Sequence record: PZ295659.1 | DNA: 64,000 bases | From: a phage | Direction: 5' to 3' (one strand) | Shown: in pieces, positions 4,355 through 48,420 of the stretch | Layout: each line of letters begins with the position of its first letter | Position numbering within the stretch: position 1 is the first letter of the stretch | Position numbers and translations under genes: made by a program | The notes under the pieces: generated by a model | What the model saw: the letters and a program-made list of their open reading frames with translations, nothing else | Database searches by the model: none | What the model was told of the DNA's origin: nothing

Positions 4355-7300
4355 ATGGCTACTTTAAAACAAATACAATTTAAAAGAAGCAAAACTGCAG
4401 GAGCACGTCCTGCTGCTTCAGTATTAGCCGAAGGTGAATTGGCTATAAACTTAAAAGACCGTGTACTTTTTACCAAAGATGACCAAGGAAATATTATTGA
4501 TCTGGGTTTTGCTAAAGGTGGTAGTATTGACGGGAATGTTATTCATACTGGCAATTATAACCAGACTGGCGATTATACTTTAAATGGCACCTTCACTCAG
4601 ACAGGTAATTTTAATTTAACTGGTATTGCTCGAGTAACTCGCGATATTATTGCCGCCGGGCAGATTATGACCGAAGGCGGAGAACTTATTACAAAAAGTT
4701 CAGGTACAGCACATGTTCGTTTTCATGATTCAGCTGATCGTGAACGTGGCATTATTTACGCACCGGCTAATGATGGATTAACTACGCAAGTAGTTAATAT
4801 CCGCGTTCAAGACTACGCCGCTGGTGATGAAAGCACCTATGCATTTTCAGGCAGTGGTCAATTTACTTCACCTGAAGTATCGGCATGGAAATCTATGTCA
4901 ACTCCTCAGATTTTGACTGACAAAGTCATTACAGACGGGAAGAAGGCCGGTGATTATGACATCTATTCATTAGCAAATAATAATTCTAACACAGATAAAA
5001 ATAATTTACGTGTCGTACGTACCGACCCAGCGGCCGCAATGCTCCATGAAATTTGTGAAAATAACGGTATCAGTTGGTATTCCGGTTCAACCCCTACTGA
5101 TTATATGTTGTCTTTTGCTTATTCCGGTGGTTTTCAAGCAGGTCATTCGATTGCAGTAGGTATGGAATCAGGGCCTTTGACATATTCAACCTTAGGTAAA
5201 GGTTCTATTGTTCTTGGTGATAATGATACTGGGCTAAAATGGCATCAGGATGGATATTATTTCAGCGTCAATAATGGAACGAAAACATTTTTATTTAGCC
5301 CTAGCGAAACAACTAGCCTAAGAAAATTTGTAGCTGGATATTCTACTAGCGGAACCGATTTAACGACTCCTCCGACAGAAAACTACGCATTAGCCACTGT
5401 TGTTACTTACCATGATAATAACGCGTATGGAGATGGTCAGACTCTTTTAGGATATTATCAAGGCGGTAATTATCATCACTATTTCCGCGGTAAAGGTACC
5501 ACAAACATTAATACTCATGGCGGTTTGTTAGTGACTCCTGGTAATATTGATGTTGTTGGTGGTTCGGTTAATATTGACGGCCGCAACAATGCATCTACTC
5601 TGATGTTCAGAGGAAATACAACAGGATGGAGTTCAGTTGATAATATGACTATCAGCGTTTGGGGTAATACCTTTACTCATATTGATAGCGTCCGTAAAAA
5701 CGTAATGGAAATATCTGATGCCACTAGCTGGATGAGCTATATTCAAAGACTTACTACTGGTGAAGTAGAAATGAACGTCAATGGTTCATTTGAATCATAC
5801 GGTGTTACTGCTGGAAATAGTGGAGTTCACACAACAGGCGAAATTTCATCTGGAGCAGTGAATGCTCTTCGTATTTGGAACGCAGATTATGGAGCCATTT
5901 TTAGACGTTCAGAAGGAAGTCTTCATATTATTCCAACTGCTTATGGTGAAGGTAAACATGGTGATATCGGTCCACTTCGCCCGTTTAGTATGGCTTTAGA
6001 TACCGGTAAAGTTACTATTCCAGATTTACAATCAAGTTATAATACGTTTGCTGCTAACGGTTATATTAAATTTACTGGTCATGGCGCAGGCGCTGGTGGT
6101 TATGACATTCAATATGCTCAAGCGGCTCCTATTTTCCAGGAAATTGATGATGATGCTATAAGCAAATATTATCCTATTGTTAAACAGAAGTTTTTAAATG
6201 GTAAAGCCGTTTGGTCTTTAGGTACTGAGATTAGTTCAGGTACATTCGTTATTCATCATCTGAAAGAAGATGGTTCACAAGGCCATACGTCTCGTTTTAA
6301 TCAAGACGGTACTGTTAACTTCCCGGGTAATGTTCTGGTCGACGGTGATATTAACATGAAAGGCGTGATGACTTTTGACGCCGGACGTTTAGGATCACGA
6401 GATTATTTTAAATTTAACCATTGGGGTGATAGTAATAATGCTCGTGATAACATCATCCAGTTAGAAGATAGTCAAGGCGCTCATTTTTCCACTGAACGTA
6501 CTTTAGCGACAGGTGCAATTAAAACTCGTTTCTTTGGCGAAACATTTACTGATGGTACATTATACCTAAATCAGATGAATAATAGCTCTGAACGATTCCA
6601 TATCAATAATTGGGGAAATTCAGAAGCTGGTCGCGCGGCAGTGATGGAAGTCGGTGATTCCAAAGGTTATCACTTCTATACTGAACGCAGGACAGATAAC
6701 AGTTTGAATTTTGATGTTGGTGGCAATTTTACTGTGCATGGACCTAGCGGGATCACTATCAAAAACTCTGCTGGCGCTCGCCACATCTGGTTTAGAGATG
6801 ATAGCGATGCAGAAAAGGCTGTTATCTGGGCTACAGATGATGGTATTTTACATATACGAAATAATCATGGGGGTCCATTTAGTCATCACTTCCAGGGTGC
6901 AATGATTCTAGCGGGAGAGCGTGTTCCATATAATAGTGAATACGCTCTTATCCGTGGTAATATTTCCGGTGGTGCATGGGTAGACTGGCGAGATCGTCCG
7001 GCTGGATTGTTGGTAGACTGTCAGGACTCACGAAATCAAGCATATAACATTTGGAAAGCTACTCATTGGGGCGAACAGCACATTGCGGCGATGGGTGTTC
7101 ATGCTGGTGGCGGTAATCCTCATGTTGTATTGCATGTTGGTGGGAGTGATTATGCATTTGGATTTAACGGTGATTTTACTGCTGGCGCTGCTGTATATTG
7201 TAACGACGTTTATATTCGTTCTGACCGTCGTCTGAAAATTAATGTTGAAGACTACGAAGAGAATGCGGTAGATAAGGTAAATAAACTCAAAGTTAAAACC

Positions 7301-19274: not shown

Positions 19275-20375
19275 TTACGCTGTGAAGATTTTATCCCACA
19301 TCGCAACAACTGCATCTCGATTATACTTCTTCCATACTGCTTCAGCACGTTTAACTCGAGCTTCGTATGTGTCAGTGAATTCTAATACAGCTTTTGTGTA
19401 AAGCGCAACTACTTCTTTCTTAGGAGTAGAGGAATCAATTTCTACACGCACAGTATCTGGGTCGTATTCGAATGTCGCATGAGGATAATCCTTAAAAACT
19501 AACTGGATTACGGGGACACCTTTAGAGATGGCTTCAATAGAACTATTCTCTACTGTACCTGTGTCAGGACACGTATTAATAAGTGCTTTAGCTGTTTTAA
19601 GGCGTTCCATGATTTCACTGTGTGGAGCATCAATAATAACAGGATATTTAGCTGGTGGAGCCCATTTACTAGGACAGTATCCTACACCATTTTCGCCTAG
19701 TGCTTTAATCGCTTCAAGAGCAACATCGGTACGACGCATTTTAGTGTCATAACGTTGTGCACTAATAATCAGATCAGTCGCCGGAAGAACTTCAGGTTTC
19801 TCATTCAAACAAATAACCGGATAATCTTCGGCTTCAAACAACGGATTTGCTCGCCAATAATCATAATCAATTTTGTCAGTCAGAGCTGAAGTCATATGGC
19901 AATATTTACGTTCAAATTCACGGAAGGCTTTAGTAGGAGCATAACTCTTACCACCATTCTTATGAATTTGAATAGTCTGGTCCCAAATTTGAACAATGCC
20001 ACGAGATACCGGTTCAAATGGTGTTGCCATAAAATTCTTATGAACTTTAGAGAGACCTGCGTCTTTAATTGCCTGAACGGTTAGTTTAGTCGGTTCCATA
20101 GTAACAACAAAATCGTATTCATTGATGCCGGCTAGTTCAACAATCTTACGAGCCATAGTATAACTCATACCTAGACTGAATTTAGTCAGATGACCAACAG
20201 GATGGTGTGTAACTTTCCAGTCACCAAACGTGTCATTATCAAAGCCGATATAATCAATATCAGCACCGATGGACACAAGATATTTCAACACATTTAAATG
20301 TACTGCTTCAAGGCCACCTTGTACACGGTCAGGATTAAATGGGACTGCACGAGATGGGATAAACATAACTTTCAT
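19275..20375 (-). CDS. GT-B fold glycosyltransferase (candidate DNA sugar transferase)
   Basis: 366 aa; N-terminal MKVMFIPSRA... Rossmann-like start and C-terminal ENSSIEAISKGVPVI resembling the GT4 E-x7-E motif; sits between rIIA.1 and gp39. Confidence 0.65.
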   Translation of the reverse strand: MKVMFIPSRAVPFNPDRVQGGLEAVHLNVLKYLVSIGADIDYIGFDNDTFGDWKVTHHPVGHLTKFSLGMSYTMARKIVELAGINEYDFVVTMEPTKLTVQAIKDAGLSKVHKNFMATPFEPVSRGIVQIWDQTIQIHKNGGKSYAPTKAFREFERKYCHMTSALTDKIDYDYWRANPLFEAEDYPVICLNEKPEVLPATDLIISAQRYDTKMRRTDVALEAIKALGENGVGYCPSKWAPPAKYPVIIDAPHSEIMERLKTAKALINTCPDTGTVENSSIEAISKGVPVIQLVFKDYPHATFEYDPDTVRVEIDSSTPKKEVVALYTKAVLEFTDTYEARVKRAEAVWKKYNRDAVVAMWDKIFTA

Positions 20376-37513: not shown

Positions 37514-37855
37514 TTAAAAGAATTTAAATTTTTTCTTGGTCCGTTCATTAAAAGCTTGTTGTACTTGCATTGTAACACATTTTTCAACATGTGGTGCAAG
37601 TTCTGCTTTTCTGTCCTGGTCAAGAACTGCAAAGTCCATTACGATTTTACCATCAACCCAGTCTAGTTTTGTAATATAGACTATATGATGAGAACCATCT
37701 TCAAGCGTAATCAGAATCTCTTGAATGACATTTTCCATTGCTGAACGGATAATTTTAAGAGATTCATTAAACACTCGTTCTTTGCGAATGTCTTCCCCTT
37801 CCGAAGAAGGGGATTCATCAACGATTTCTAGATTTAAATCATCGAGATTATTCAT
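37514..37855 (-). CDS. 40: gp40-like small protein
   Basis: Start at ATG 37855 overlapping the uvsX stop by 8 nt; the alternative TTG at 37876 gives 120 aa; position as T4 gene 40. Confidence 0.5.
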   Translation of the reverse strand: MNNLDDLNLEIVDESPSSEGEDIRKERVFNESLKIIRSAMENVIQEILITLEDGSHHIVYITKLDWVDGKIVMDFAVLDQDRKAELAPHVEKCVTMQVQQAFNERTKKKFKFF

Positions 37856-39020
37856 CGAAATCTTCCATTTCGTCAAGGTCGTTTTCTATATCTGCTGCAG
37901 ACGGAGCATCAGAAGTTTTAACCGGAACTTTAGTTGTTGCTTTGCAATTAATAAGGTCGTTAACAGCGTCATCAACTTCTTTAATAGAAGAGATAGCACC
38001 TAGTTTATATTTAGTTTCAATTGCATCTCGGAAAGGTTTGTGTTTAAACAACGGTCCCCAGAATTCTACACAATCAGTAGCTTTAGCACGCCATGATTTT
38101 TCTTCACGAATCATTTCACCTGTTTCTTCGTCAAGGAATTCACGAGCATACCAACCAGCTTTAGGCTTAACTACAAAACCAATTTCAGTTGCCATTTCTA
38201 ACAAGCCACTGAATGGGTCAATACCACCATCAAAATTAACTGTGATCGGAAAAGTAGATTTCTCTTTAACCGTACGAGATTTTTCTGCTTTCAACGTGAA
38301 GTCATAACCGGTCAATTCTGTACCTTCTTTAACCTGACGTTTAGAGATAAAGAATACAGTGTTAGCAGAGTAAAGAATACCTGTACCACCACCCATAATC
38401 TCTTTAGGATACAATCCGCCAATTTCCATTGCGGTATGGTTAATTGCAACACACGGAATATCTTTAATAGTCAGATACGGGGTCACAATGCGGAACAGAG
38501 ATTTAAGTGCCTTAGCACGAGACATATCACCTACAACTTTCTCGTTCAATGCATCTTCGGTTTCTTTCTTAGATGCAGTATTACCGATTGAATCGATAAA
38601 GATAATAACTTTATCACCGCGTTCAATCGCGTCAAGCTGATTAGTCATATCAACTTTAAGTTGTTCGACAGATTGAATCGGAGTATGAACTACACGGTCT
38701 AAATCAACACCCATTGAACGAAAATAAGATTCTGAAGCACCAAATTCTGAATCATAGAACAAACAAATTGCATCTTTATATTTCTTCATATATGCTGCAA
38801 CCATGGTCAGACCAAACAACGTTTTAAAGTGTTTAGAAGGAGCAGCAAAAATAGTTAAGCCTGATTGCAACCCGGCATTCAGTGCACCACCTAATGCAAT
38901 ATTCAACATCGGAATACGAGTAGGGACTTCATCACGATTATTAAACAGCTTAGACTTAGTCAAGTCTGCAGTCATTTTAGAAGTAGAAGCTTTAATCAGA
39001 CGAGATTTTAAATCAGACAT
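37848..39020 (-). CDS. uvsX: Recombinase UvsX (RecA-like)
   Basis: 390 aa; MSDLKSRLIKASTSKMTADLTKSKLFNNRDEVPTRIPMLNIALGG...; matches remembered T4/RB69 UvsX. Confidence 0.9.
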   Translation of the reverse strand: MSDLKSRLIKASTSKMTADLTKSKLFNNRDEVPTRIPMLNIALGGALNAGLQSGLTIFAAPSKHFKTLFGLTMVAAYMKKYKDAICLFYDSEFGASESYFRSMGVDLDRVVHTPIQSVEQLKVDMTNQLDAIERGDKVIIFIDSIGNTASKKETEDALNEKVVGDMSRAKALKSLFRIVTPYLTIKDIPCVAINHTAMEIGGLYPKEIMGGGTGILYSANTVFFISKRQVKEGTELTGYDFTLKAEKSRTVKEKSTFPITVNFDGGIDPFSGLLEMATEIGFVVKPKAGWYAREFLDEETGEMIREEKSWRAKATDCVEFWGPLFKHKPFRDAIETKYKLGAISSIKEVDDAVNDLINCKATTKVPVKTSDAPSAADIENDLDEMEDFDE

Positions 39021-39120
39021 TGTATTTTTTCCATAGGCATCATTATATTTTACTCATGTTTAAAAGATAAGACGATTATATACTAAGGGTTATACAGCAT
39101 TTAAAACTTTAAACAGGCTC

Positions 39121-39669
39121 TTAACGAGCCCATTTGATAATTTCTGTAATCAAATTATTACGTTCGCTTGCATTAAATCCTATAACTTTGTTAGCACCAT
39201 CATGATTAAGTAATTGATACGTTTGGATTTCGTTATGAATTGCAAACTCTTCAAAATATGAAATGACTGTATTAAAACCGAACGAAGACAAAGTAATAAG
39301 GTCGTCTTCAAAACTTTCAGTCATTTCGTTACGTGTTAAAATAATTGTGAACACATCATGGTTTTGGCAAAGACGAACATAATCCTGTTCATAAACGTCA
39401 AGAACCGAGTCCGCATCTTGTCGAATACGTCCATAAACCCAGTTACTAATATATCCACGGTCTAACAGATAAATCTTAGTAGGGTCTAAATAATTCAACA
39501 TCGTTTCGAAACAGCCAACTTCATTTCGAGACTTAACATCGAAACGTCCATCAACTGTTCGTTTAGGGAAATCAATCTTTACATATCTTTCGCTAATTTC
39601 CATTATGTCATTAATGAAAGTTGTTTTACCAGCATTATCCGGGCCATCTACTAAAATAATTTTAGCCAT
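39121..39669 (-). CDS. P-loop NTPase, nucleoside/nucleotide kinase-like
   Basis: 182 aa; Walker A ILVDGPDNAGKTTF; no direct T4 counterpart at this position. Confidence 0.5.
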   Translation of the reverse strand: MAKIILVDGPDNAGKTTFINDIMEISERYVKIDFPKRTVDGRFDVKSRNEVGCFETMLNYLDPTKIYLLDRGYISNWVYGRIRQDADSVLDVYEQDYVRLCQNHDVFTIILTRNEMTESFEDDLITLSSFGFNTVISYFEEFAIHNEIQTYQLLNHDGANKVIGFNASERNNLITEIIKWAR

Positions 39670-39670
39670 T

Positions 39671-40570
39671 TTATTCCTCGATTACGACATCTTCATATTT
39701 AGGTATATTATACGGCGAAGAAATTAAAGCATTAAAGTAGATGAACTCACCAAGACCTGGATGGAATACTTCTTCAGGATTTTCGAAATATTGAATCTTC
39801 GGTCGTCCTTTAAGAATTTGATAGTACTCAGTTTTAGTTGGGTTAAAAATTCGAATCAGCGCTTCTTCAGGATACTTATTTCTGTCGAAGCTATTATTTG
39901 GATCGGTTATATAAAGCGGTTGGCCTAATTGAATTGCACATTCAACCACTTGTTCAAAACGATAACACGGGTCACTAATTCGAAATGGATGAAAAATACC
40001 ATCTAGATGAATAGGAGCCAAATCACCTACAAGACGCTGCATGATGGAAGGACGTATAACTTTCTGCGTTACGATAATCTTATTACCATCTGCACCTGCG
40101 TTAACCAGCACTTCTTTTTGACGTTCATTCAACACAGTAGTTTGAAGTGAACGATTAACCGACAACATGTCGGTTTTTAAGAATTCGTCAATATAAAAAC
40201 GTGGTTTATTAGGGTCCGCAGTGATATTGAAATTGAATTCCACATCAAAAGCGCCGTCATATCCAGTGATATCTGTGATTAGAAAATCACAATCATAATA
40301 AGCAATTAATGAATCAACCACAAATTCATTTTCAGACCAGAAATATTTACGAGTGTTATATGCGTTATCTTTATACCATAATGGAACAAACTTAAATTCT
40401 GGGAAAAGACGTTCACATTCTTTAATATCAGATGCATTACGTGGATATGTAATCACATCACCCGGATTAGCACGGTGCAAATGAAGTTGGAAGTTGCCAT
40501 CCTTAAGGATAGCATACTGTCCAGTTTCATAAGACCGCATACTCAAGATAGGTACGCGGAAAATAGCCAT
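39671..40570 (-). CDS. Protein of unknown function at the beta-glucosyltransferase locus; candidate DNA sugar transferase
   Basis: 299 aa between uvsX and gp42; no recognisable similarity to remembered T4 beta-gt; no motifs identified. Confidence 0.35.
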   Translation of the reverse strand: MAIFRVPILSMRSYETGQYAILKDGNFQLHLHRANPGDVITYPRNASDIKECERLFPEFKFVPLWYKDNAYNTRKYFWSENEFVVDSLIAYYDCDFLITDITGYDGAFDVEFNFNITADPNKPRFYIDEFLKTDMLSVNRSLQTTVLNERQKEVLVNAGADGNKIIVTQKVIRPSIMQRLVGDLAPIHLDGIFHPFRISDPCYRFEQVVECAIQLGQPLYITDPNNSFDRNKYPEEALIRIFNPTKTEYYQILKGRPKIQYFENPEEVFHPGLGEFIYFNALISSPYNIPKYEDVVIEE

Positions 40571-41286
40571 TAGTCAAGGAATCCTTTAACATAATCAAAA
40601 TCACGTTCAAACACATGGGCACTTACCATGGTATGAGTATAATCACCAACTTCTACACCACATTCGTTAGCGATATAATGAAGTAATTTTCCTTGGAGAT
40701 AAAAATCCAACTGCATAACAACAGCACAGTTCTGAGAACGCATATGACAGTGGGTATAAAGCTTACCATCACGAATATAATAAGTCACTGAGTCAGTACA
40801 TGGATATTCAAGTGTTTCGTCCGAATCAAGCAAAGCCTGATCTGAACTTTCTAGAATTTGGAACACAACTCTTCGGGAGTTAGGCTTCTCTTTAAGTTCT
40901 TTTAGAAGAGCTGGTAATTGAGCCGCAATGCGAGGACCGTAGAAAGTGTTGAAGTTTGCAGGCAAAGCGTCTGATTTAGGTTTAGAAATAAATTTAGCGA
41001 CATTAGGATATGCCTTAAATGCTTCTTCTGCATCAGTACCACCAGAAATCATAAACTTCCAGAAGTCTTCGGCATATTCATAAGAGATGCGATTAATACG
41101 TGGATCGGTCATTTTGAATGATGAAGGGGTATCAACAACTACTGTCATAGACCCAATTTCATTACAACGTCCAATACGAGAATCAGTAACGAACTGTGGA
41201 TTTTCTAAAATTTCACGATTAACAGCTTTAAATGCGGATTGAAAATCTGCGGCTTTAATATATTTCATTGTGTTATGTTTTCCCAT
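40570..41286 (-). CDS. 42: dCMP hydroxymethylase (thymidylate synthase family)
   Basis: 238 aa; PCTDSVTYYIRDGKLYTHCHMRSQN aligns with the T4 gp42 active-site region CTNTVQYLIRD; SD gaggt; N-terminus diverged from my recollection of T4. Confidence 0.65.
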   Translation of the reverse strand: MGKHNTMKYIKAADFQSAFKAVNREILENPQFVTDSRIGRCNEIGSMTVVVDTPSSFKMTDPRINRISYEYAEDFWKFMISGGTDAEEAFKAYPNVAKFISKPKSDALPANFNTFYGPRIAAQLPALLKELKEKPNSRRVVFQILESSDQALLDSDETLEYPCTDSVTYYIRDGKLYTHCHMRSQNCAVVMQLDFYLQGKLLHYIANECGVEVGDYTHTMVSAHVFERDFDYVKGFLD

Positions 41287-41304
41287 GTTTACCTCAATAC
41301 AGTT

Positions 41305-41328
41305 ATTATATACTCAATTCATAAAGCT
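41305..41328 (-). promoter_or_regulatory. Candidate MotA-dependent middle promoter for gene 42
   Basis: Minus-strand AGCTTTA (one mismatch to the TGCTTTA MotA box) 11 nt upstream of TATAAT. Confidence 0.35.
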
Positions 41329-41406
41329 TATTTGAATTTCTTAGCAATGTTGATATAACGTAAAGCTTCAGCATCGATACTTCCAAGAACACTATGAAGA
41401 AATGCA

Positions 41407-41568
41407 TCAGCGTAGTATTCTAGTTGAACAGGTTTCTTTAATCACTTTAGCCGCTTTAGTTTCAAACAGGCCCATAAGGGCCTTTTTAAGAATTTGTTCG
41501 TTGCTGTTAATTTTCGTAGTCAAAATCTCTTCATTAAGTTGGTGGTTAAAAGTTTTTCTAGAAATCAT
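41407..41568 (-). CDS. Possible small protein (53 aa) coupled by ATGA to the Cys-rich gene
   Basis: ATG overlaps the upstream TGA; region also contains a GGCCC/GGGCC hairpin, so coding status is uncertain. Confidence 0.3.
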   Translation of the reverse strand: MISRKTFNHQLNEEILTTKINSNEQILKKALMGLFETKAAKVIKETCSTRILR

Positions 41569-42725
41569 TCCGGGTACCTCAAAGCGTCGTCAGAGTTAGT
41601 TATATCAATAATAGATATAGAGTTTTCTGCTAACCCATTTTTAGATAACTGACGTTTATAATATCTTTCACAATATGTACACGTCGTCCCGCAGATTTCA
41701 TTAGCACAATCGAAATCTGGATGTCTGAACCACCTTTTTTCTAAAAAGCCATCTAACAAAGAGGTTTCAATATTTACCGTATGTGAAAACTCGGTCTCAT
41801 TTTCAAGAGTGAAAATAGTCTCTAAAGGCTTCCACAATTCCAACAAATTACCTTCAAATTTTTCAGAAGCATAAGCTTCAAGAACTTTCAAAATGTAGTC
41901 TGTGCTACCTGTACGTCCTGAAACTTTGAATTGAGTGATACCAATATCATTATAAAGTTTCAAATCTTGAGGACGAACAAAACGAGTTCTCAACCAGTTA
42001 AATGGGTCTGTATCACGAGCTTTAATACAGTGTTGCATTGGATAGCCATTTAAGGATTTGGCATCATCTACTGTAACGTCGGTGCTATGGAAAATATAGC
42101 AAGAGTCACGATAGCTACAATGTGTTGTATACCCTTTACCAGCATTAGAACAGAACTCATTTACAAGAACTTCAAATATTATATTGTTCTTATTGCAAAA
42201 CTCTGCTGCACGCTTCAGGAAAGAAACTGAACGGTTCTTATGAATTCCACAGCAGACCTTTTTGATATTATATTGGTCATGCAAGTATTTGATTTGAGTT
42301 ACAGCATCGACATGTAGAATTGTTGAAACTTCAATCTCAATGTCTTTATTAACTTCACGAACAATTTCCATAACAACAGGGTTAGCGATAGTAATACGCC
42401 ATACGCCTATTGACCAAAGATACTGAACATAATCCTGAATAGCTTTCTTCTTCCACTCAACTAGTTCTCTTTTTGAACCAGGATTTATCGTGTTGAGTGT
42501 ATAGTTAAAGCAAATACCTAATTCGTTACAACGTTTAACATAATCTTCTAACATCTTTTTGTCAACGTCAGGAAGCCTAAAATCAGGTCTGGCTGCTACA
42601 AAAGCCATTTCTCTTGTAGAGCCGTATACTTCATTTATCAAGCTATTAGGATAAGTTTTATTGAGCTCTACGATTTTATCAAGAAGAGCTAAATCAAAAT
42701 TCGTTCCGATTTTAAAAGTATTCAT
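41565..42725 (-). CDS. Cys-rich protein of unknown function, possible metal or Fe-S binding, in the sugar-nucleotide module
   Basis: 386 aa; C-terminal CANEICGTTCTYC (C-x4-C-x3-C-x2-C) plus further Cys pairs; weak resemblance to U32-type Cys-rich segments not confirmed. Confidence 0.5.
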   Translation of the reverse strand: MNTFKIGTNFDLALLDKIVELNKTYPNSLINEVYGSTREMAFVAARPDFRLPDVDKKMLEDYVKRCNELGICFNYTLNTINPGSKRELVEWKKKAIQDYVQYLWSIGVWRITIANPVVMEIVREVNKDIEIEVSTILHVDAVTQIKYLHDQYNIKKVCCGIHKNRSVSFLKRAAEFCNKNNIIFEVLVNEFCSNAGKGYTTHCSYRDSCYIFHSTDVTVDDAKSLNGYPMQHCIKARDTDPFNWLRTRFVRPQDLKLYNDIGITQFKVSGRTGSTDYILKVLEAYASEKFEGNLLELWKPLETIFTLENETEFSHTVNIETSLLDGFLEKRWFRHPDFDCANEICGTTCTYCERYYKRQLSKNGLAENSISIIDITNSDDALRYPE

Positions 42726-42779
42726 TTTTACATCTCGCGTTAATTGATGCGATGGTTTTTGCAGGTCTTACTTAAATTA

Positions 42780-43181
42780 TTATAGATTCGGTTTATATGA
42801 TTTAAATGTTTCGAATTCGCCTTTATTCATAAGAGCTTTGAATTCGTCAGGACGCATAGCTTTGTCGTCGATAATCCAATCATATACTGGTTTATGTGTT
42901 AGCAAATTATGGTACTTCAAGCCAATGTTTGCCAAGTTCTGAATCAGACTTGGGAGAATGTCAATTGCTATACGACCAGGACCTACTGACTTCATACCGC
43001 GAGCAGTGTAAAGCGTTATTGTATGCCCTGCATCATACAGGGCATTAATGGCAGACACCATTTCGACGTCTGGTTTGAAGTTCACGTAATCACGATTGTT
43101 ATTCCACTCGGTTATACAATCATCGACATCAAAACAAAGATTAAGCATGTTTTCTACACGGTGCATTAGATTCGTTCCCAT
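42780..43181 (-). CDS. HAD-superfamily phosphatase (small, capless)
   Basis: 133 aa; motif I-like FDVDDCIT, then LYTAR and KP...WIIDDKA; an alternative ATG at 43166 overlaps the upstream stop as TAATG. Confidence 0.55.
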   Translation of the reverse strand: MGTNLMHRVENMLNLCFDVDDCITEWNNNRDYVNFKPDVEMVSAINALYDAGHTITLYTARGMKSVGPGRIAIDILPSLIQNLANIGLKYHNLLTHKPVYDWIIDDKAMRPDEFKALMNKGEFETFKSYKPNL

Positions 43182-44851
43182 TGATGAGTGATATCGCCAC
43201 CGATTGGACGATAGGAAACACCAGTTTCTTTATCAGTTAGTACCCATTTACCAGGATTTTTTGTAATCAGAGTAGCCGTTACAGGTTCTGCTACGTCATA
43301 ACTAATAGAGCCGTCTTGAAGTACACGGCCCATGTTACGTAATTGCTTAGTCAGAAGTTCCATACCTTTATAATATGCGGCTACCGCTTTAAGTGGATTA
43401 TTCTTGAAATAACCACCTAATGCAATCCAGATAATTGCTACAGCCAAATGATGATACTCGTTAAACGAACTCATCTTTCCATATTTGTAAACTAATGGAT
43501 TGATGTTAATAGTCACATTACAAGTTGTTTCATCAATAGTAAACTGACCCCAGGTCGGATTAGCGTTGAATTCATCATAACCTGAAACAGCGTAAAGCAC
43601 TTTAGCTTCATCATACAATTTTGGCCCGTAAATCTTGGTTTCACCAAAATATCCACGAGGGTCGATAAACTTGACTTCACCATTATCAGTAATCATAGTA
43701 TTACTGAAGTTCGGGTCACCATGAATAACAGAGTACTGTCCCTGAGAACGGTTATGATAACGAATAAGGTGTTCTAAAGCTTGTTTCAACATTGGCTTCA
43801 GACGTCCAATCTTAGTGTAGTTCACATGTGTGATTTTACCAAATGAATCAATCAATGGTTGAATACTTTCACAACGATCAATAACTTTCGTATAGAATTC
43901 TTTAGTGAAATCACGACGAACAGTTTCAGGACTTACAAAATAAGTGTCTGTGCTGAATTTCAGTGCATCTAAAATTGCATCAACAATTTGTGGACGAGCA
44001 AGACTCGATTTGGATTTAATATATTCAAATGCCGGCTTACCTTTAATGCGTTCCATTTCAAAGTTATTTTCATTAACAGAAACTAACTGAGGAACTGAAT
44101 CTGATTTCACTTTAAGATACCATGAAATCTCATCTTTCTGAAGAGCTCGACCCTGTTCGGTTAATGCGAATTTAGTTACAGTTTCTTCACCAATTTCAAC
44201 TGCATTAAAACTACGATTAAGTTCACGAACTTCATGAGCTTTTTCAAGTTTAGGCATATCACCTAAATCAATTAGATTCATAAGCTCTGATTTATTGAAT
44301 GCGCTGCCGTAAAGGAATTCTACGAAATCACGCCCTTTGCAGTATTCATGAATTTCCTCATCAGTAGAACCCATATAGAATTCCCAGTCTTTGAACTGAT
44401 AAATTCCTACAACATTACCACCTGTTGAACCTACGTTAGTGATATTTTCACCGTCGAAATTATATCGACATTCGTCACCCTTAACATAGATTGCGTTAAC
44501 ATTCCAAGACCATGAACCAAAATCAGGAATAATATCGCACCAGTTAACAATTACATTATGGCTGTCTAAATCTTTGTGTAATTTAGCAAGAGCATAAGCA
44601 GAACCATACGCTTCATCAACTGTACGAATAGTCACATTGAACCCTTCTTGCTCACAATAAGCTCGAACAGTTTCAGCAAATTTTGAATGAACTACTACAA
44701 TAATTTCATCTGCGCCAAGGTCAGAATAAATTGTATACAAATTGCTCAGAATAGTGTCTTGTTTATAGTTAACAAGCACCTTAGGAATATGATGCGTTAT
44801 TGGATACAAACGAGTTGCCAGTCCAGCACCAAGAATAACAGCTTTTTTCAT
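43166..44851 (-). CDS. Bifunctional sugar-1-phosphate nucleotidyltransferase / APH-fold sugar kinase fusion
   Basis: 561 aa; N-terminal AVILGAGLATRLYP (RmlA-type G-x-G-T-R-L), C-terminal VIHGDPNFSNTMI...FIDPRG (Brenner and D-x-x-G motifs of choline/aminoglycoside kinase fold). Confidence 0.65.
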   Translation of the reverse strand: MKKAVILGAGLATRLYPITHHIPKVLVNYKQDTILSNLYTIYSDLGADEIIVVVHSKFAETVRAYCEQEGFNVTIRTVDEAYGSAYALAKLHKDLDSHNVIVNWCDIIPDFGSWSWNVNAIYVKGDECRYNFDGENITNVGSTGGNVVGIYQFKDWEFYMGSTDEEIHEYCKGRDFVEFLYGSAFNKSELMNLIDLGDMPKLEKAHEVRELNRSFNAVEIGEETVTKFALTEQGRALQKDEISWYLKVKSDSVPQLVSVNENNFEMERIKGKPAFEYIKSKSSLARPQIVDAILDALKFSTDTYFVSPETVRRDFTKEFYTKVIDRCESIQPLIDSFGKITHVNYTKIGRLKPMLKQALEHLIRYHNRSQGQYSVIHGDPNFSNTMITDNGEVKFIDPRGYFGETKIYGPKLYDEAKVLYAVSGYDEFNANPTWGQFTIDETTCNVTININPLVYKYGKMSSFNEYHHLAVAIIWIALGGYFKNNPLKAVAAYYKGMELLTKQLRNMGRVLQDGSISYDVAEPVTATLITKNPGKWVLTDKETGVSYRPIGGDITHQWERI

Positions 44852-44892
44852 GTTGTGGTCCTCATTGGTAAGTAGGAGTATTGTACACTATT

Positions 44893-45036
44893 CTAGTTAA
44901 AGCATTCATACTTTGCTTGTAGTCCAATCATAATCCATCCGATTACAAGTGTTGGAATCATTACTGGAGCCGTTAAGCTCCAGTAGATAGTCATGACAAG
45001 CATCAATAGTAAAAGTCCTATTGTTATTGCTTTCAT
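44893..45036 (-). CDS. Small hydrophobic peptide (47 aa) coupled by ATGA to the isomerase gene
   Basis: MKAITIGLLLLMLVMTIYWSLTAPVMIPTLVIGWIMIGL...; ATG overlaps the TGA of the SIS gene. Confidence 0.4.
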   Translation of the reverse strand: MKAITIGLLLLMLVMTIYWSLTAPVMIPTLVIGWIMIGLQAKYECFN

Positions 45037-45668
45037 TGTTCGCCTCGTAACATGGCACCTAGTGCACCGCCAGGGTGGAACTTAAGGAAGTCATTAGAGG
45101 TAAATCCACGTTCAGACGAAAGGTTGATAGCAAACGTATCGATAAGCGCTAACAACAATGTAGTGGACATGGTCGGAGCCAGAGAATTCTCATCAACCTC
45201 TACTGCGATGCCTGTACAGAACGTATAATCAAAAAGAGCTTCATATTCTTGTGGAATGTCTGGGTTACAATGCAACAGAATCTGTTTGACGTTCGGACGA
45301 ATCATTTTAAGATGCTTAGCCACGCCTATCATTTCTTCAGTTTTACCAGAACGACTAATATGAATCAACACATCATTAGGCGCAATGAATCCTGCATCAC
45401 CGTGAGAATAATGCCCGGTGTTCAAGTACATACTAGGGATACCGAGTGAAGCAAATGTTTCAGAAGCTTTAGTTGCAATATTAGCATTCTTACCAACACC
45501 TGTAATAATTACTCGGCTTTCATAATTACTAAGCCCTGGGCGTCGAAGAGTTTCTAGAATAGCATTATAACGAGCAGGGTTTTGACTAATTACTTTGGCC
45601 ATAGCGGCCAAAGAAGAAGCTTGTTTTATGATTGCGTCAATAGCGATAGTAATAGGAGTAGTTTTCAT
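45033..45668 (-). CDS. SIS-domain sugar-phosphate isomerase, KdsD/GutQ-like (arabinose-5-phosphate isomerase type) without CBS domains
   Basis: 211 aa; ITGVGKNANIATKASETFASLGIPSMYLNTGHYSHGDAGFIAPNDVLIHISRSGKT parallels the KdsD SIS core GMGKSGHIG...HGDLG...ISNSGES. Confidence 0.7.
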   Translation of the reverse strand: MKTTPITIAIDAIIKQASSLAAMAKVISQNPARYNAILETLRRPGLSNYESRVIITGVGKNANIATKASETFASLGIPSMYLNTGHYSHGDAGFIAPNDVLIHISRSGKTEEMIGVAKHLKMIRPNVKQILLHCNPDIPQEYEALFDYTFCTGIAVEVDENSLAPTMSTTLLLALIDTFAINLSSERGFTSNDFLKFHPGGALGAMLRGEQ

Positions 45669-45708
45669 ATTTCTCTCATTTAATTAGTTTACCGTCCATG
45701 ACATTATA

Positions 45709-48420
45709 TCAAAAATCGAACATATCGAAAAGAGATGCTTTCTTCTCGTAATCGAGTTTCGCTGCTGATGTGAATCCTTCAAGTGGTTTAATAAATGTCT
45801 TCTCAAGGAGAACAGTGTAGTCCATCCAATGAAGTACGTCGTCTTTAATTAAATCTGTGATTTCAGTACCAGAAGGCCATGCGATACATTTATCACCGAA
45901 TGGGTTTCCTTCACGTAAAGGCAGAACATATACTTTTTCACCTTCTACAACTTGCGGTGCATCGATATTACCTTTGATGGCCCGGTTATATGTCAGAATT
46001 CCACGAATATGGAACGGACATTTAGGACCAGGGAATCCACCTACGTCATATTTAGCGATGTTATTCGCAGAAGATACCGACGCGATGCTAATATAATTCA
46101 ATTGACGGAATTCTTTTTCAAACTCTTTAAAATATTCTTGTAATGATTCTTCACCTTCTTGAAGCATACGACGAATACATTCTTTAAGAGCTTTCTGTAC
46201 GGCTTTAGGAGTCGAAGATTTCTGCGTCTCTAGACCCATGATTTTGAGTTTAGGCTCAGCGTAACGAGTACCTTCCATATCCCACACGTTTAATGCATAA
46301 CGTTTCTTACCAGTCCAGAATCCACCAATACCTTTAGAACCAAGTGGAGGCCCAGCGATAGCTTCTCGGTCCATGAACATTAAGTGTTGTTTATTGTTCA
46401 TGTATTCACACATTTCACGGAAACCTCTATCAATAGCTGGTTCCATACGTTCACGTGCAAACTTATCTAAGAAGTCTACCCAGTGGTTGGTATCACGGAA
46501 TTTAGATTCACCAACCTTATCGATAATTTTATCAGCAGATACGTAAATAGAGTCTGTATCACCATAAAGAACGAAAGCTTCACCTTCTGTACCACAAACT
46601 TCGTTCAGATATTCATTAACTTTACGTTCAATCCACTGTAAAGCCATTTGCCCAAATGTTGTGATTGCAGTAGCATTACGCAAATCATAATAACGGAACC
46701 AAACGTTGCCAAGTGCACCATAAAGTGAGTTGATAAGCAATTTACGGTTAATTTGAGCAGTCATACCTGCAACTTCGGTACGTTGAGCTCTAAACAACAT
46801 TTCATTAAGAGATTTAGCAGACAACTTTTTAATCTTTTCTTTAATCTCATCACTGAAGTCGAAACGATAATCAACATCTAATGGTTCGTCAACAGAAAGA
46901 TTAGGATTATGCAATGCCTCTTTAATTATTTCACCGTTACGTTGAGCTGCAAGCATGTAACCTTTATGTTCTTTACGTTGATTAAAGACCTTAGTGATTT
47001 CAGTTGGAACTACACCATCACGGTCTTTATAATACATCATGCCGTTAGGAGAGCAACTGTACACATCTGAAGGACGTTCAGCAACAGCGTTAATATAATC
47101 ATGCAATGGAGCTACTTTAAACGTTCCTGCTATTGTTTCCGGGCTAATATTCACTTGGCGAATAATACTTGGATACAGAGATGTAAGGTCGAAACTCATT
47201 ACATATTTGTATCGATTTGGAATAGGTTCCTTAACAAAAGCACCAGGATAAGGTTGAACCGGGTGAGAACGACCTTGTGGAATCACCTTGTTCTGCTCTT
47301 TAAGGCTATTAAAAATAATAGCATCCCATGTTTTAATTGGGCTAAACACAGATTGAATCTGTATCTTAGCATAATAACCCATGTCCAAACTCAAGTTGAT
47401 GAACTGACGCTTAGCATCAATTTGCAATACACGATACACGTCGATAATGTTATAAGAAATATATCGTTGGTGATTGCTTTCACGAAGCTTAGAAATAGGG
47501 CCGTCATATTTCAGTTTACCAACGTTCAATTCAAATTCTGAAATGTAATCCAGAGAATATGACGGCTGATTGGTAAAAGAGAATTTTTTGTAAAGGTCAA
47601 TGTAATCAAGAACAGAGATACCGAACAATGTAATGATTTCACGAGAACCATACATGTTTTCGATAACTTTAACACGAGTTTTACGATGTGGTGATAAACG
47701 TTTCGCAGTAGATTCGCCAAAAATATTCTTGATTCGGTTATACACATATGGAATATCAAATGACTCAACGTTCCATCCAGTCAAAATGACAGGAGTTTTC
47801 TGTTGCCAGAAGTTGAGATATTCCATCAACAATTCTTTTTCGTTATCGAACGGCATATAAATGATTTTATCGATAATTTCGGATGGAACTTCATCACCGC
47901 CTTGTTCTTGAAGCTTGGCCGCAATTTCGATAGACCATTCTTCTACATTACCATATGGAGAATTCAATAGATCAAATACGTAGAACCTGTCGTCAATTGA
48001 GTCATAATGGGTGATAGCATCAATCGGATGTTTTGCTTGTGACGGCTCAGGGAACCCATCCGGGGATGTTACTTCGATGTCGAAGTTAGCCACACGAATT
48101 TTTGTATGGTCGTATTTGATTTCATAGTTATAAGTGTCAGACAAATACGCCAATTTGAAATCGTCCATGCCAAGTGCTTCAAGTCCGATATCTTCCATGC
48201 GTTTAATCCATTGGGAGGCATCACGCATATTGGCGAACAACTTACGAGTACACGGCTTACCATAGATATCAAAATATTTCGTGGCCTGACTTTCAGGACA
48301 ATGTGCAAACAATGATGGTTTATACTCTACTTCACGAGTACGTTCACGGCCGTTAGAATCGATGTAACGTTCAAAAATTGAATCACCAATCTGTTCAACC
48401 GTTAAGTAAAATTCTTTCAT
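45709..48420 (-). CDS. 43: DNA polymerase gp43 (family B), RB69-type
   Basis: 903 aa; MKEFYLTVEQIGDSIFERYIDSNGRERTREVEYKPSLF... matches my recollection of RB69 gp43; exonuclease and polymerase motifs (YGDTDS) present. Confidence 0.95.
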   Translation of the reverse strand: MKEFYLTVEQIGDSIFERYIDSNGRERTREVEYKPSLFAHCPESQATKYFDIYGKPCTRKLFANMRDASQWIKRMEDIGLEALGMDDFKLAYLSDTYNYEIKYDHTKIRVANFDIEVTSPDGFPEPSQAKHPIDAITHYDSIDDRFYVFDLLNSPYGNVEEWSIEIAAKLQEQGGDEVPSEIIDKIIYMPFDNEKELLMEYLNFWQQKTPVILTGWNVESFDIPYVYNRIKNIFGESTAKRLSPHRKTRVKVIENMYGSREIITLFGISVLDYIDLYKKFSFTNQPSYSLDYISEFELNVGKLKYDGPISKLRESNHQRYISYNIIDVYRVLQIDAKRQFINLSLDMGYYAKIQIQSVFSPIKTWDAIIFNSLKEQNKVIPQGRSHPVQPYPGAFVKEPIPNRYKYVMSFDLTSLYPSIIRQVNISPETIAGTFKVAPLHDYINAVAERPSDVYSCSPNGMMYYKDRDGVVPTEITKVFNQRKEHKGYMLAAQRNGEIIKEALHNPNLSVDEPLDVDYRFDFSDEIKEKIKKLSAKSLNEMLFRAQRTEVAGMTAQINRKLLINSLYGALGNVWFRYYDLRNATAITTFGQMALQWIERKVNEYLNEVCGTEGEAFVLYGDTDSIYVSADKIIDKVGESKFRDTNHWVDFLDKFARERMEPAIDRGFREMCEYMNNKQHLMFMDREAIAGPPLGSKGIGGFWTGKKRYALNVWDMEGTRYAEPKLKIMGLETQKSSTPKAVQKALKECIRRMLQEGEESLQEYFKEFEKEFRQLNYISIASVSSANNIAKYDVGGFPGPKCPFHIRGILTYNRAIKGNIDAPQVVEGEKVYVLPLREGNPFGDKCIAWPSGTEITDLIKDDVLHWMDYTVLLEKTFIKPLEGFTSAAKLDYEKKASLFDMFDF

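Follow-up and report, generated by a model that had tools for sequence, protein, structure and literature searches.

Which reactions are carried out by the product of the long open reading frame at 43166..44851 of the window (the whole 64,000-nucleotide stretch of phage DNA, record PZ295659.1), and on which sugar do they act? A preliminary description of the locus had proposed that a single polypeptide combines a sugar-1-phosphate nucleotidyltransferase with a kinase of the APH/choline-kinase fold, and that it makes an NDP-sugar directly from a free sugar. The ATG-initiated frame encodes 561 amino acids and lies on the minus strand, like all other features given below. A Shine-Dalgarno sequence, GAGGA (44859..44863), is found 7 nt before the start codon, and a motif resembling a T4-type middle promoter (TGCTTTA, 12 nt, TACAAT; 44880..44904), whose function would be that of such a promoter, is located 29 nt upstream of the ATG. 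Across the whole window, this pattern was found at 16 places, where 1.7 occurrences are expected.

The N-terminal nucleotidyltransferase domain (residues 1–205; 44237..44851) was identified by Pfam, Foldseek and a profile comparison with PDB sequences. The Pfam family NTP_transferase (PF00483) matched the N-terminal half with an E value of 7e-10 and 39.3 bits (curated cut-off 21.2), and the model of the domain resembled MurU, RmlA, LicC and HddC with a Foldseek probability of 1.00. With a profile of the nucleotidyltransferase family, HddC was the top match among the PDB sequences (E 1e-13) and LicC was found at E 2e-11; the best single-sequence match in the PDB was LicC (1jyk, E 1.7e-5). The previously quoted string AVILGAGLATRLYP occupies residues 4–17, and alignment to LicC and homologs places the nucleotidyltransferase signature, GAGLATRLYPITHHIPK, at residues 8–24 (44780..44830). 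The signature had been described as G-x-G-T-R-L; a nucleotidyltransferase signature is indeed present, but the exact motif is G-A-G-L-A-T-R-L, in which alanine takes the place of the second glycine of the canonical form in the LicC alignment. Residues G10, R14, K24, D106, D195, D198 and K201 are invariant in 43 homologs, down to 28% identity. The boundary of the domain falls at approximately residues 205–215, instead of after the roughly 230 residues first assigned to it.

By sequence, the kinase half gave sub-threshold Pfam matches only (Fructosamin_kin, RIO1 and EcKL); two homologs, P0056 and P0082, passed the Pfam cut-off for APH. Searches of PDB sequences with the C-terminal half returned marginal kinase matches (RIO2, E 0.05), no solved structure of the protein was found by single-sequence or profile searches of the PDB sequences, and NCBIfam has no model for it, all matches being far below the cut-offs. 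The whole-chain AlphaFold2 model had a pLDDT of 93.3 and a pTM of 0.89. Since its Foldseek matches were swamped by nucleotidyltransferases, residues 206–561 were modelled separately (pLDDT 94.2). The results showed that this part resembles APH(2'')-IIa (3ham), choline and ethanolamine kinases, and LicA, and that its structural matches include the anomeric or furanose kinases maltokinase, 5-methylthioribose kinase and NahK. The preliminary description had named a C-terminal half lacking a kinase fold as a finding that would speak against it; in the model the fold is there.

The kinase domain, eukaryotic-like and of the APH/choline-kinase fold, extends over residues ~215–507 (43331..44209). Alignment of the homologs places the catalytic loop HGDPNFSN at residues 377–384 (43700..43723) and the metal-binding motif IDPRGYFG, the equivalent of DFG, at residues 396–403 (43643..43666). 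Both strings quoted earlier for this half, VIHGDPNFSNTMI and FIDPRGYFG, were recovered, at residues 375–387 and 395–403, respectively. The catalytic set (Lys, Glu, H-G-D-x4-N, Asp) is intact and is invariant in the 43 homologs. Beyond the kinase core, a 54-residue C-terminal tail (residues 508–561; 43169..43330) was modelled with a pLDDT of 76–86; it is absent from distant homologs, the alignments of which end at about residue 502–504.

Both folds were thus modelled within one 561-residue reading frame, as originally claimed. When related phages were compared for fused or split forms, a check that had been suggested at the outset, the kinase and the nucleotidyltransferase formed one protein in 364 of the 377 phage records, and the split in the RB69 record was traced to one extra C at codon 218. 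Thomas et al. had already described the RB69 pair in 2018 as a single protein of 561 amino acids and 63.9 kDa, split by a sequencing error (PMC6024577), so that the fusion can no longer be called unusual. A cassette consisting of an SIS gene, the fusion and a HAD gene is also present in a distant cyanophage. On giant-virus-like contigs, we observed relatives of 890–955 amino acids in which HAD, SIS, nucleotidyltransferase and kinase are joined in one chain.

The window DNA is 97.8–98.6% identical to Mosigvirus genomes, RB69 and HY126 included, and this comparison places the phage among the RB69-like members of Mosigvirus. Over 562 positions, 544 residues of the protein (97%) are identical to XAN60479.1 of HY126. 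XAN60479.1 is the only nucleotidyltransferase-kinase reading frame in the HY126 cluster, and from domain content and synteny we infer that it is AfhE. Of the 18 substitutions or indels between the two proteins, 12–13 are within residues 228–265 of the kinase N-lobe, and none affects an invariant catalytic residue. Identity to the two RB69 pieces, ORF053c and ORF052c, is 99.1% and 99.7%, and the eight genes of the cluster are all 97–100% identical to their counterparts in HY126 and RB69. Length, domain order and gene neighbourhood are the same as in AfhE of HY126, RB69 gp52:53 (ORF53_52c) and DLP3 gp82. The reading frame is very probably the Mosigvirus ortholog of AfhE (RB69 gp52:53), acting in a UDP-D-arabinofuranose pathway for arabinosylation of the phage DNA. 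Our own evidence for this assignment consists of the reading frame, the two folds, the conservation of their catalytic residues, the composition of the cassette and the near-identity to studied phages; the substrates, the order of the steps and UDP as the carrier come from the literature, and the ring-locking rationale and the translational coupling discussed below are our own. The fusion and its role have been described before (RB69 in 2018, AfhE in 2026), and the present analysis adds no new knowledge on these two points.

The genes around the fusion are in line with this assignment. Upstream lies a gene for an SIS-domain D-arabinose-5-phosphate isomerase (45033..45668; RB69 gp55 ortholog, Pfam SIS, 100% identical in HY126), with NCBIfam matches to KpsF/GutQ (E 2e-32) and KdsD (E 1e-30). 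In the preliminary description the substrate had been deduced from this neighbour alone, and the isomerase indeed fixes the identity of the sugar as D-arabinose. Downstream, at 42780..43166, a small HAD-type phosphatase of 128 amino acids (AfhF, RB69 gp51 ortholog; 100% identical in HY126, its function taken from the literature) matched the NCBIfam EcbF-BcbF capsule phosphatase model with E 4e-13, which is under that model's cut-off. Its ATG overlaps the TAA stop codon of the fusion (TAATG), suggesting that the two genes are translationally coupled; translation from another ATG in the same frame, at 43181, would yield 133 amino acids. Further along are a thymidylate-synthase homolog (40570..41286; Pfam Thymidylat_synt, 99.2–99.6% identical to RB69 and HY126), identified as the 5-hydroxy-dCMP synthase orthologous to RB69 gp48, a putative first DNA arabinosyltransferase with an intact reading frame of 299 amino acids (39671..40570; RB69 gp46:47 ortholog) and a thymidylate-kinase-like nucleotide kinase (39121..39669; RB69 gp45 ortholog). 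A second putative arabinosyltransferase (19278..20375; RB69 gp3 ortholog, 98.4% identity by tblastn) is encoded away from the cluster.

Taken together with the literature, these genes suggest the following route. The SIS isomerase would convert host ribulose-5-phosphate to D-arabinose-5-phosphate, and the C-terminal kinase would use ATP to phosphorylate the anomeric C1 hydroxyl, giving arabinofuranose-1,5-bisphosphate. Only the furanose ring could form at this stage, because the 5-phosphate blocks O5 (a chemical argument). The HAD phosphatase would then remove the 5-phosphate, and the N-terminal domain would convert arabinofuranose-1-phosphate and UTP to UDP-arabinofuranose and pyrophosphate. 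Finally, the two putative arabinosyltransferases, which are of the GT-B type, would transfer arabinose onto 5-hydroxycytosine in DNA. The acceptor base would come from the ThyA homolog in the form of 5hodCMP, a role that PMC13326640 gives to the RB69 gp48-type protein.

For the central steps, the pathway text of PMC13326640 (Lee et al. 2026), which relays He et al. (Nat Chem Biol 2026), states that AfhE phosphorylates Araf5P, and that the resulting Araf1,5P is dephosphorylated by AfhF. The earlier expectation of an NDP-pentose as the product agrees with the UDP-Araf reported in the same text, and RB69 DNA is described in that paper as containing mono- and di-arabinosylated 5-hydroxycytosine. 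TH1_060 of phage Thanatos, which is 54% identical to our protein, is essential for phage growth (PMC12838424); the purified protein did not form an NDP-sugar from xylose-1-phosphate, whichever NTP was supplied (PMC12838424), a result that is weak evidence against the proposed function, since xylose-1-phosphate is probably the wrong substrate. UDP-D-arabinofuranose does not belong to the normal metabolism of enterobacteria, and the enzyme would allow RB69-like phages to build DNA with arabinosylated 5-hydroxycytosine, which is reported to block many restriction enzymes and to alter the sensitivity to CRISPR and type IV systems. Since the HAD phosphatase acts between the reactions of the two domains, the polypeptide alone does not complete the pathway. 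The bisphosphate would have to leave the kinase, visit the phosphatase and return to the nucleotidyltransferase; that the enzyme and the phosphatase form a channelling complex, perhaps with the C-terminal tail (residues 508–561) as a docking element and with the four-activity giant-virus relatives as its covalent version, is a speculative and rather unlikely idea.

The same step logic (isomerase, anomeric kinase yielding a bisphosphate, HAD phosphatase, nucleotidyltransferase) is known from the ADP- and GDP-heptose pathways, where the enzymes are GmhA (SIS isomerase), the kinase of HldE or HddA, GmhB (HAD phosphatase) and the nucleotidyltransferase of HldE or HddC. In HldE, too, a single polypeptide carries the kinase and the nucleotidyltransferase, and the phosphatase acts between their reactions. 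However, HldE unites a ribokinase (PfkB)-fold kinase with a cytidylyltransferase-fold domain in the opposite order and HddA is a GHMP kinase, whereas the phage protein consists of an APH/choline-kinase fold and PF00483; the heptose pathways feed LPS, whereas the phage product is a C5 furanose sugar for DNA. Membership in the HldE type was rejected, the folds being different and the pathway logic alone being common to both.

Nucleotidyltransferase-paired anomeric kinases of the APH fold (AmgK/MurU, NahK) use free sugars, and NahK and maltokinase are among the structural matches of our kinase domain, both of which count for a salvage route in which the HAD phosphatase would free D-arabinose from Ara5P, the kinase would phosphorylate C1 and the nucleotidyltransferase would make the NDP-sugar, the domain reactions then being consecutive. 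The order of isomerase, kinase, phosphatase and nucleotidyltransferase established for heptose nucleotide sugars counts against it, as does a chemical argument: free D-arabinose is mostly pyranose, but a furanose is required as the product, and phosphorylation of the 5-phosphate ester would lock the sugar in that ring form. Table 1 of PMC13326640 does give this other order, with the phosphatase first and the kinase acting on free arabinose ('Dephosphorylates Araf5p to Ara', 'Phosphorylates Ara to Araf1p'), but the pathway text of that paper, after the experiments of He et al., places AfhE before AfhF, and we regard salvage of the free sugar as improbable. AmgK/MurU, an anomeric kinase for MurNAc and GlcNAc with its uridylyltransferase, and LicA/LicC, usually separate proteins in both systems, perform consecutive reactions on a free substrate, whereas in the phage route, as far as the pathway text describes it, the substrate is a sugar 5-phosphate and a phosphatase intervenes. 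The proposal that the polypeptide makes an NDP-sugar directly from free sugar is contradicted by the same account, in which the kinase substrate is Ara5P and a separate HAD phosphatase (AfhF) acts before the nucleotidyltransferase step.

An anomeric kinase and an NDP-sugar pyrophosphorylase are likewise joined in one polypeptide in the FKP/AFKP80-type enzymes of Bacteroides, plants and Leishmania, and the Leishmania enzyme activates D-arabinose. Their kinase half, however, is of the GHMP fold and not homologous to that of the phage protein, and they use free sugars and form GDP-pyranose products; assignment to the FKP type of fucokinase/GDP-fucose pyrophosphorylase was rejected on the kinase fold. 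A MurU-like nucleotidyltransferase fold is shared with AmgK/MurU, and both folds match those of LicC and LicA. As in fused LicCA, the protein might instead activate phosphocholine or phosphoethanolamine, as a choline kinase and CTP:phosphocholine cytidylyltransferase producing CDP-choline or a related head group; LicC 1jyk is the best single-sequence PDB match of the N-terminal domain, and the C-terminal domain resembles choline and ethanolamine kinases and LicA. Yet the family profile puts HddC, a heptose-1-phosphate guanylyltransferase, first (E 1e-13), the flanking genes encode an Ara5P isomerase, a HAD phosphatase of the sugar-phosphate type, a 5hodCMP synthase and glycosyltransferases, and genes for the transport or transfer of choline are missing from the gene context. 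Arabinose is a component of Mosigvirus DNA, and the 97%-identical AfhE is active on arabinose phosphates according to the pathway text; choline activation is therefore extremely unlikely.

Hardly more probable is a role of the N-terminal domain as a GT-A-type glycosyltransferase moving sugar to DNA, the role first considered for RB69 ORF053c and Thanatos TH1_060. A conserved-domain match reported in 2018 (PMC6024577) was to the GT-A superfamily, and TH1_060 was handled as a glycosyltransferase candidate (PMC12838424), but UDP-xylose was not transferred to DNA by TH1_060 in the same study. In our protein the nucleotidyltransferase signature (G-x-G-x-x-T-R...P-K) is present with R14 and K24 invariant, the top structural matches are all sugar-1-phosphate nucleotidyltransferases, and the cluster has separate GT-B candidates. 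Choline activation of the LicCA type, the GT-A role, and membership in the FKP and HldE types were thus ruled out by context and fold.

The assignment as an AfhE ortholog is also of value for annotation, since the label given to it in many GenBank records is still 'hypothetical protein', 'GlmU' or 'bifunctional protein'. Also inside the cluster is a gene for a U32-family protein (41565..42725; RB69 gp50 ortholog, Pfam Peptidase_U32 E 6e-11), for which a search of PDB sequences returned no match. This protein is very conserved, and we have seen it only in phages of facultative anaerobes.

The gene under study (43166..44851, minus strand) starts with ATG and encodes 561 aa in a single ORF, with a ribosome-binding site, GAGGA, 7 nt upstream of its ATG. 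The preliminary description had read it as a nucleotidyltransferase (NTase) fused to a kinase, and the three peptide strings quoted there are present at residues 4–17, 375–387 and 395–403. The N-terminal half scored above the Pfam NTP_transferase cut-off (E 7e-10) and aligned with LicC in a single-sequence search (E 1.7e-5), and a profile built from 43 homologs matched the solved structures of HddC (heptose-1-phosphate guanylyltransferase; E 1e-13) and LicC (E 2e-11). By sequence, the kinase matches of the C-terminal half were all below the Pfam threshold; the APH cut-off was passed by two homologs. The AlphaFold2 model of the whole chain, based on a 43-sequence alignment, had a pLDDT of 93.3 and a pTM of 0.89, and Foldseek matched it exclusively to NTases (MurU, RmlA, LicC and HddC). 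When residues 206–561 were modelled alone (pLDDT 94.2), the best match was APH(2'')-IIa (3ham), followed by choline/ethanolamine kinases, macrolide phosphotransferases and LicA. The C-terminal half, for which the lack of a kinase fold had been named as grounds for rejecting the fusion, thus matches APH/choline-kinase folds, and the claim stands. The two domains meet at about residues 205–215. Across homologs down to 28% identity, residues G10, R14, K24, D106, D195, D198 and K201 of the NTase and K227, E241, D379, N384 and D397 of the kinase are invariant; these are the expected catalytic residues. Taken together, the sequence, profile, model and conservation results confirm that both domains reside in one ORF.

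The DNA of window positions 39000–46000 is 97.8–98.6% identical to many Mosigvirus genomes, including those of PHB12, F2, HY126 and RB69, which on sequence identity assigns the window to an RB69-like T-even phage. Each of the cluster genes is 97–100% identical to its HY126 and RB69 counterparts, and the target is identical to the sole NTase-kinase ORF of HY126 (presumably AfhE) at 544 of 562 positions. Of the 18 differences, 12–13 are packed into residues 228–265 (44059..44170, minus strand), which form the beta-sheet in the N-lobe of the kinase, and the two proteins are nearly identical elsewhere, a pattern suggestive of a small mosaic or of local recombination.

The RB69 record cuts the gene into ORF053c and ORF052c, and its alignment with the target showed exactly one additional C, at codon 218. 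Thomas et al. (2018) re-sequenced this RB69 region, found C-29116 to be an error, named the single 561-residue ORF 'ORF53_52c', expressed it as a band of ~64 kDa and proposed that it acts with ORF055c in UDP-arabinose synthesis (PMC6024577). The reference NC_004928.1 still carries frameshift errors in ORF053c/052c (5167–6853) and ORF047c/046c (1670–2570); both genes are intact in the window, encoding 561 aa and 299 aa (39671..40570, minus strand). Lee et al. (2026) report mono- and poly-arabinosylated 5-hydroxycytosine, not hydroxymethylcytosine, in RB69 DNA, and the structural matches of their models (4y7t, 1jyk and 3ham) are those obtained here for the target (PMC13326640). A homolog in Shewanella phage Thanatos (54% identical) is essential for phage propagation (PMC12838424). 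The target is the published enzyme, already known and, according to the literature, biochemically characterised.

The first reading of the sequence was correct and the functional guess largely so, except for the proposal that NDP-sugar is made directly from free sugar. In the reported order, the SIS-domain isomerase would convert ribulose-5-P to arabinose-5-P, the kinase domain would phosphorylate this at C1, the HAD enzyme would then take off the 5-phosphate, and the NTase domain would add UMP from UTP. According to the summary by Lee et al. of the AfhE/AfhF biochemistry of He et al., from which we take it, the kinase substrate is arabinose-5-P, and the Mg-dependent HAD phosphatase AfhF acts between the two AfhE steps, turning Araf1,5P into Araf1P (PMC13326640). 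An order starting from free sugar is retained only in the scheme in Table 1 of Lee et al. (PMC13326640). Against it stands a chemical argument: with O5 esterified, arabinose-5-P can close solely to a furanose, which is also the ring form in the DNA adduct. Because the ester limits the ring in this way, we infer that the order via arabinose-5-P is to be favoured. The established heptose pathways GmhA/HldE/GmhB and GmhA/HddA/GmhB/HddC follow exactly the same logic, although their kinase fold differs.

The neighbouring genes are likewise on the minus strand: a family-B DNA polymerase (45709..48420), the KpsF/KdsD-like SIS isomerase (45033..45668), a 47-aa strongly hydrophobic ORF between isomerase and target (MKAITIGLLLLMLVMTIYW..., 44893..45036), a small HAD-like phosphatase (42780..43166), a U32-family protein orthologous to RB69 gp50 (41565..42725), a thymidylate-synthase homolog (40570..41286), the 299-aa protein, a 182-aa nucleotide-kinase-like protein (39121..39669) and UvsX (37848..39020). 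The target stop codon and the phosphatase ATG overlap as TAATG, suggesting translational coupling of the two genes. The phosphatase has two possible in-frame ATG starts: one at 43181 would give 133 aa and overlap the target by 16 nt, and one at 43166, with the TAATG overlap, would give 128 aa, the form annotated in RB69 and HY126. The ATG of the 47-aa ORF overlaps the isomerase stop codon (ATGA), and its counterparts are 100% (RB69 ORF054c) and 98% (HY126) identical. Matches to a T4-type middle-promoter-like (MotA-box) pattern, TGCTTYA-N11-13-TANNNT, number 16 in the window, where 1.7 would be expected, and none of 100 shuffles had as many; 12 are on the minus strand. The sites include 44880..44904 (29 nt upstream of the target ATG), 43574..43599 (inside the target gene) and 39707..39731, all three on the minus strand.

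The question of whether homologs in related phages are fused or split was examined by tblastn. Homologs were found in 377 phage records, at least 80% of the protein being covered in 364, and no natural split was found among them. The hosts belong to Escherichia, Shigella, Serratia, Klebsiella, Enterobacter, Yersinia, Acinetobacter, Vibrio, Synechococcus and Chryseobacterium; the Chryseobacterium phage homolog, too, is a single ORF and lies close to a KpsF/GutQ isomerase. In cyanophage S-SRM01 (26% identity), gp300–302 (3411–5823 of L007) form the same three-gene cassette as here, of SIS protein, 508-aa NTase-kinase and small phosphatase, surrounded by genes for nucleotide-sugar epimerases, a NodZ-like fucosyltransferase and GT2 proteins. 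The annotation shows no thymidylate-synthase homolog within 4 kb of this cassette, which in this phage may therefore supply sugar for some glycan rather than for modified DNA.

The literature consulted assigns no role to the U32-family gene of the arabinosylation cluster. Its product is far more conserved than the target, with at least 80% identity in all 222 phage records that carry it; these are all phages of facultative anaerobes (Enterobacterales, Shewanella), and the 57 Acinetobacter phage records with a target homolog all lack it. U32 proteins such as RlhA, TrhP and UbiU/V serve O2-independent hydroxylations; the phage's known 5hodCMP synthase requires O2. The U32-family protein could therefore provide an anaerobic route to 5-hydroxycytosine, a testable idea for which we found no precedent in the literature consulted.

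Relatives of 890–955 aa, 31–36% identical to the target, combine HAD, SIS, NTP_transferase and APH-like kinase domains, in that order, in one chain (contigs L003, 8001–10781; L010, 8001–10862; L012, 1–2144 and 8001–10679). Their contigs carry giant-virus hallmarks, namely MutS-HNH, RNA polymerase Rpb2 and RNA_pol_N subunits, a 1553-aa family-B polymerase (PolB) and eukaryote-type domains, and one of these proteins was found in a eukaryotic transcriptome. On L012, two paralogs adjoin sugar epimerases and a GT2 gene.
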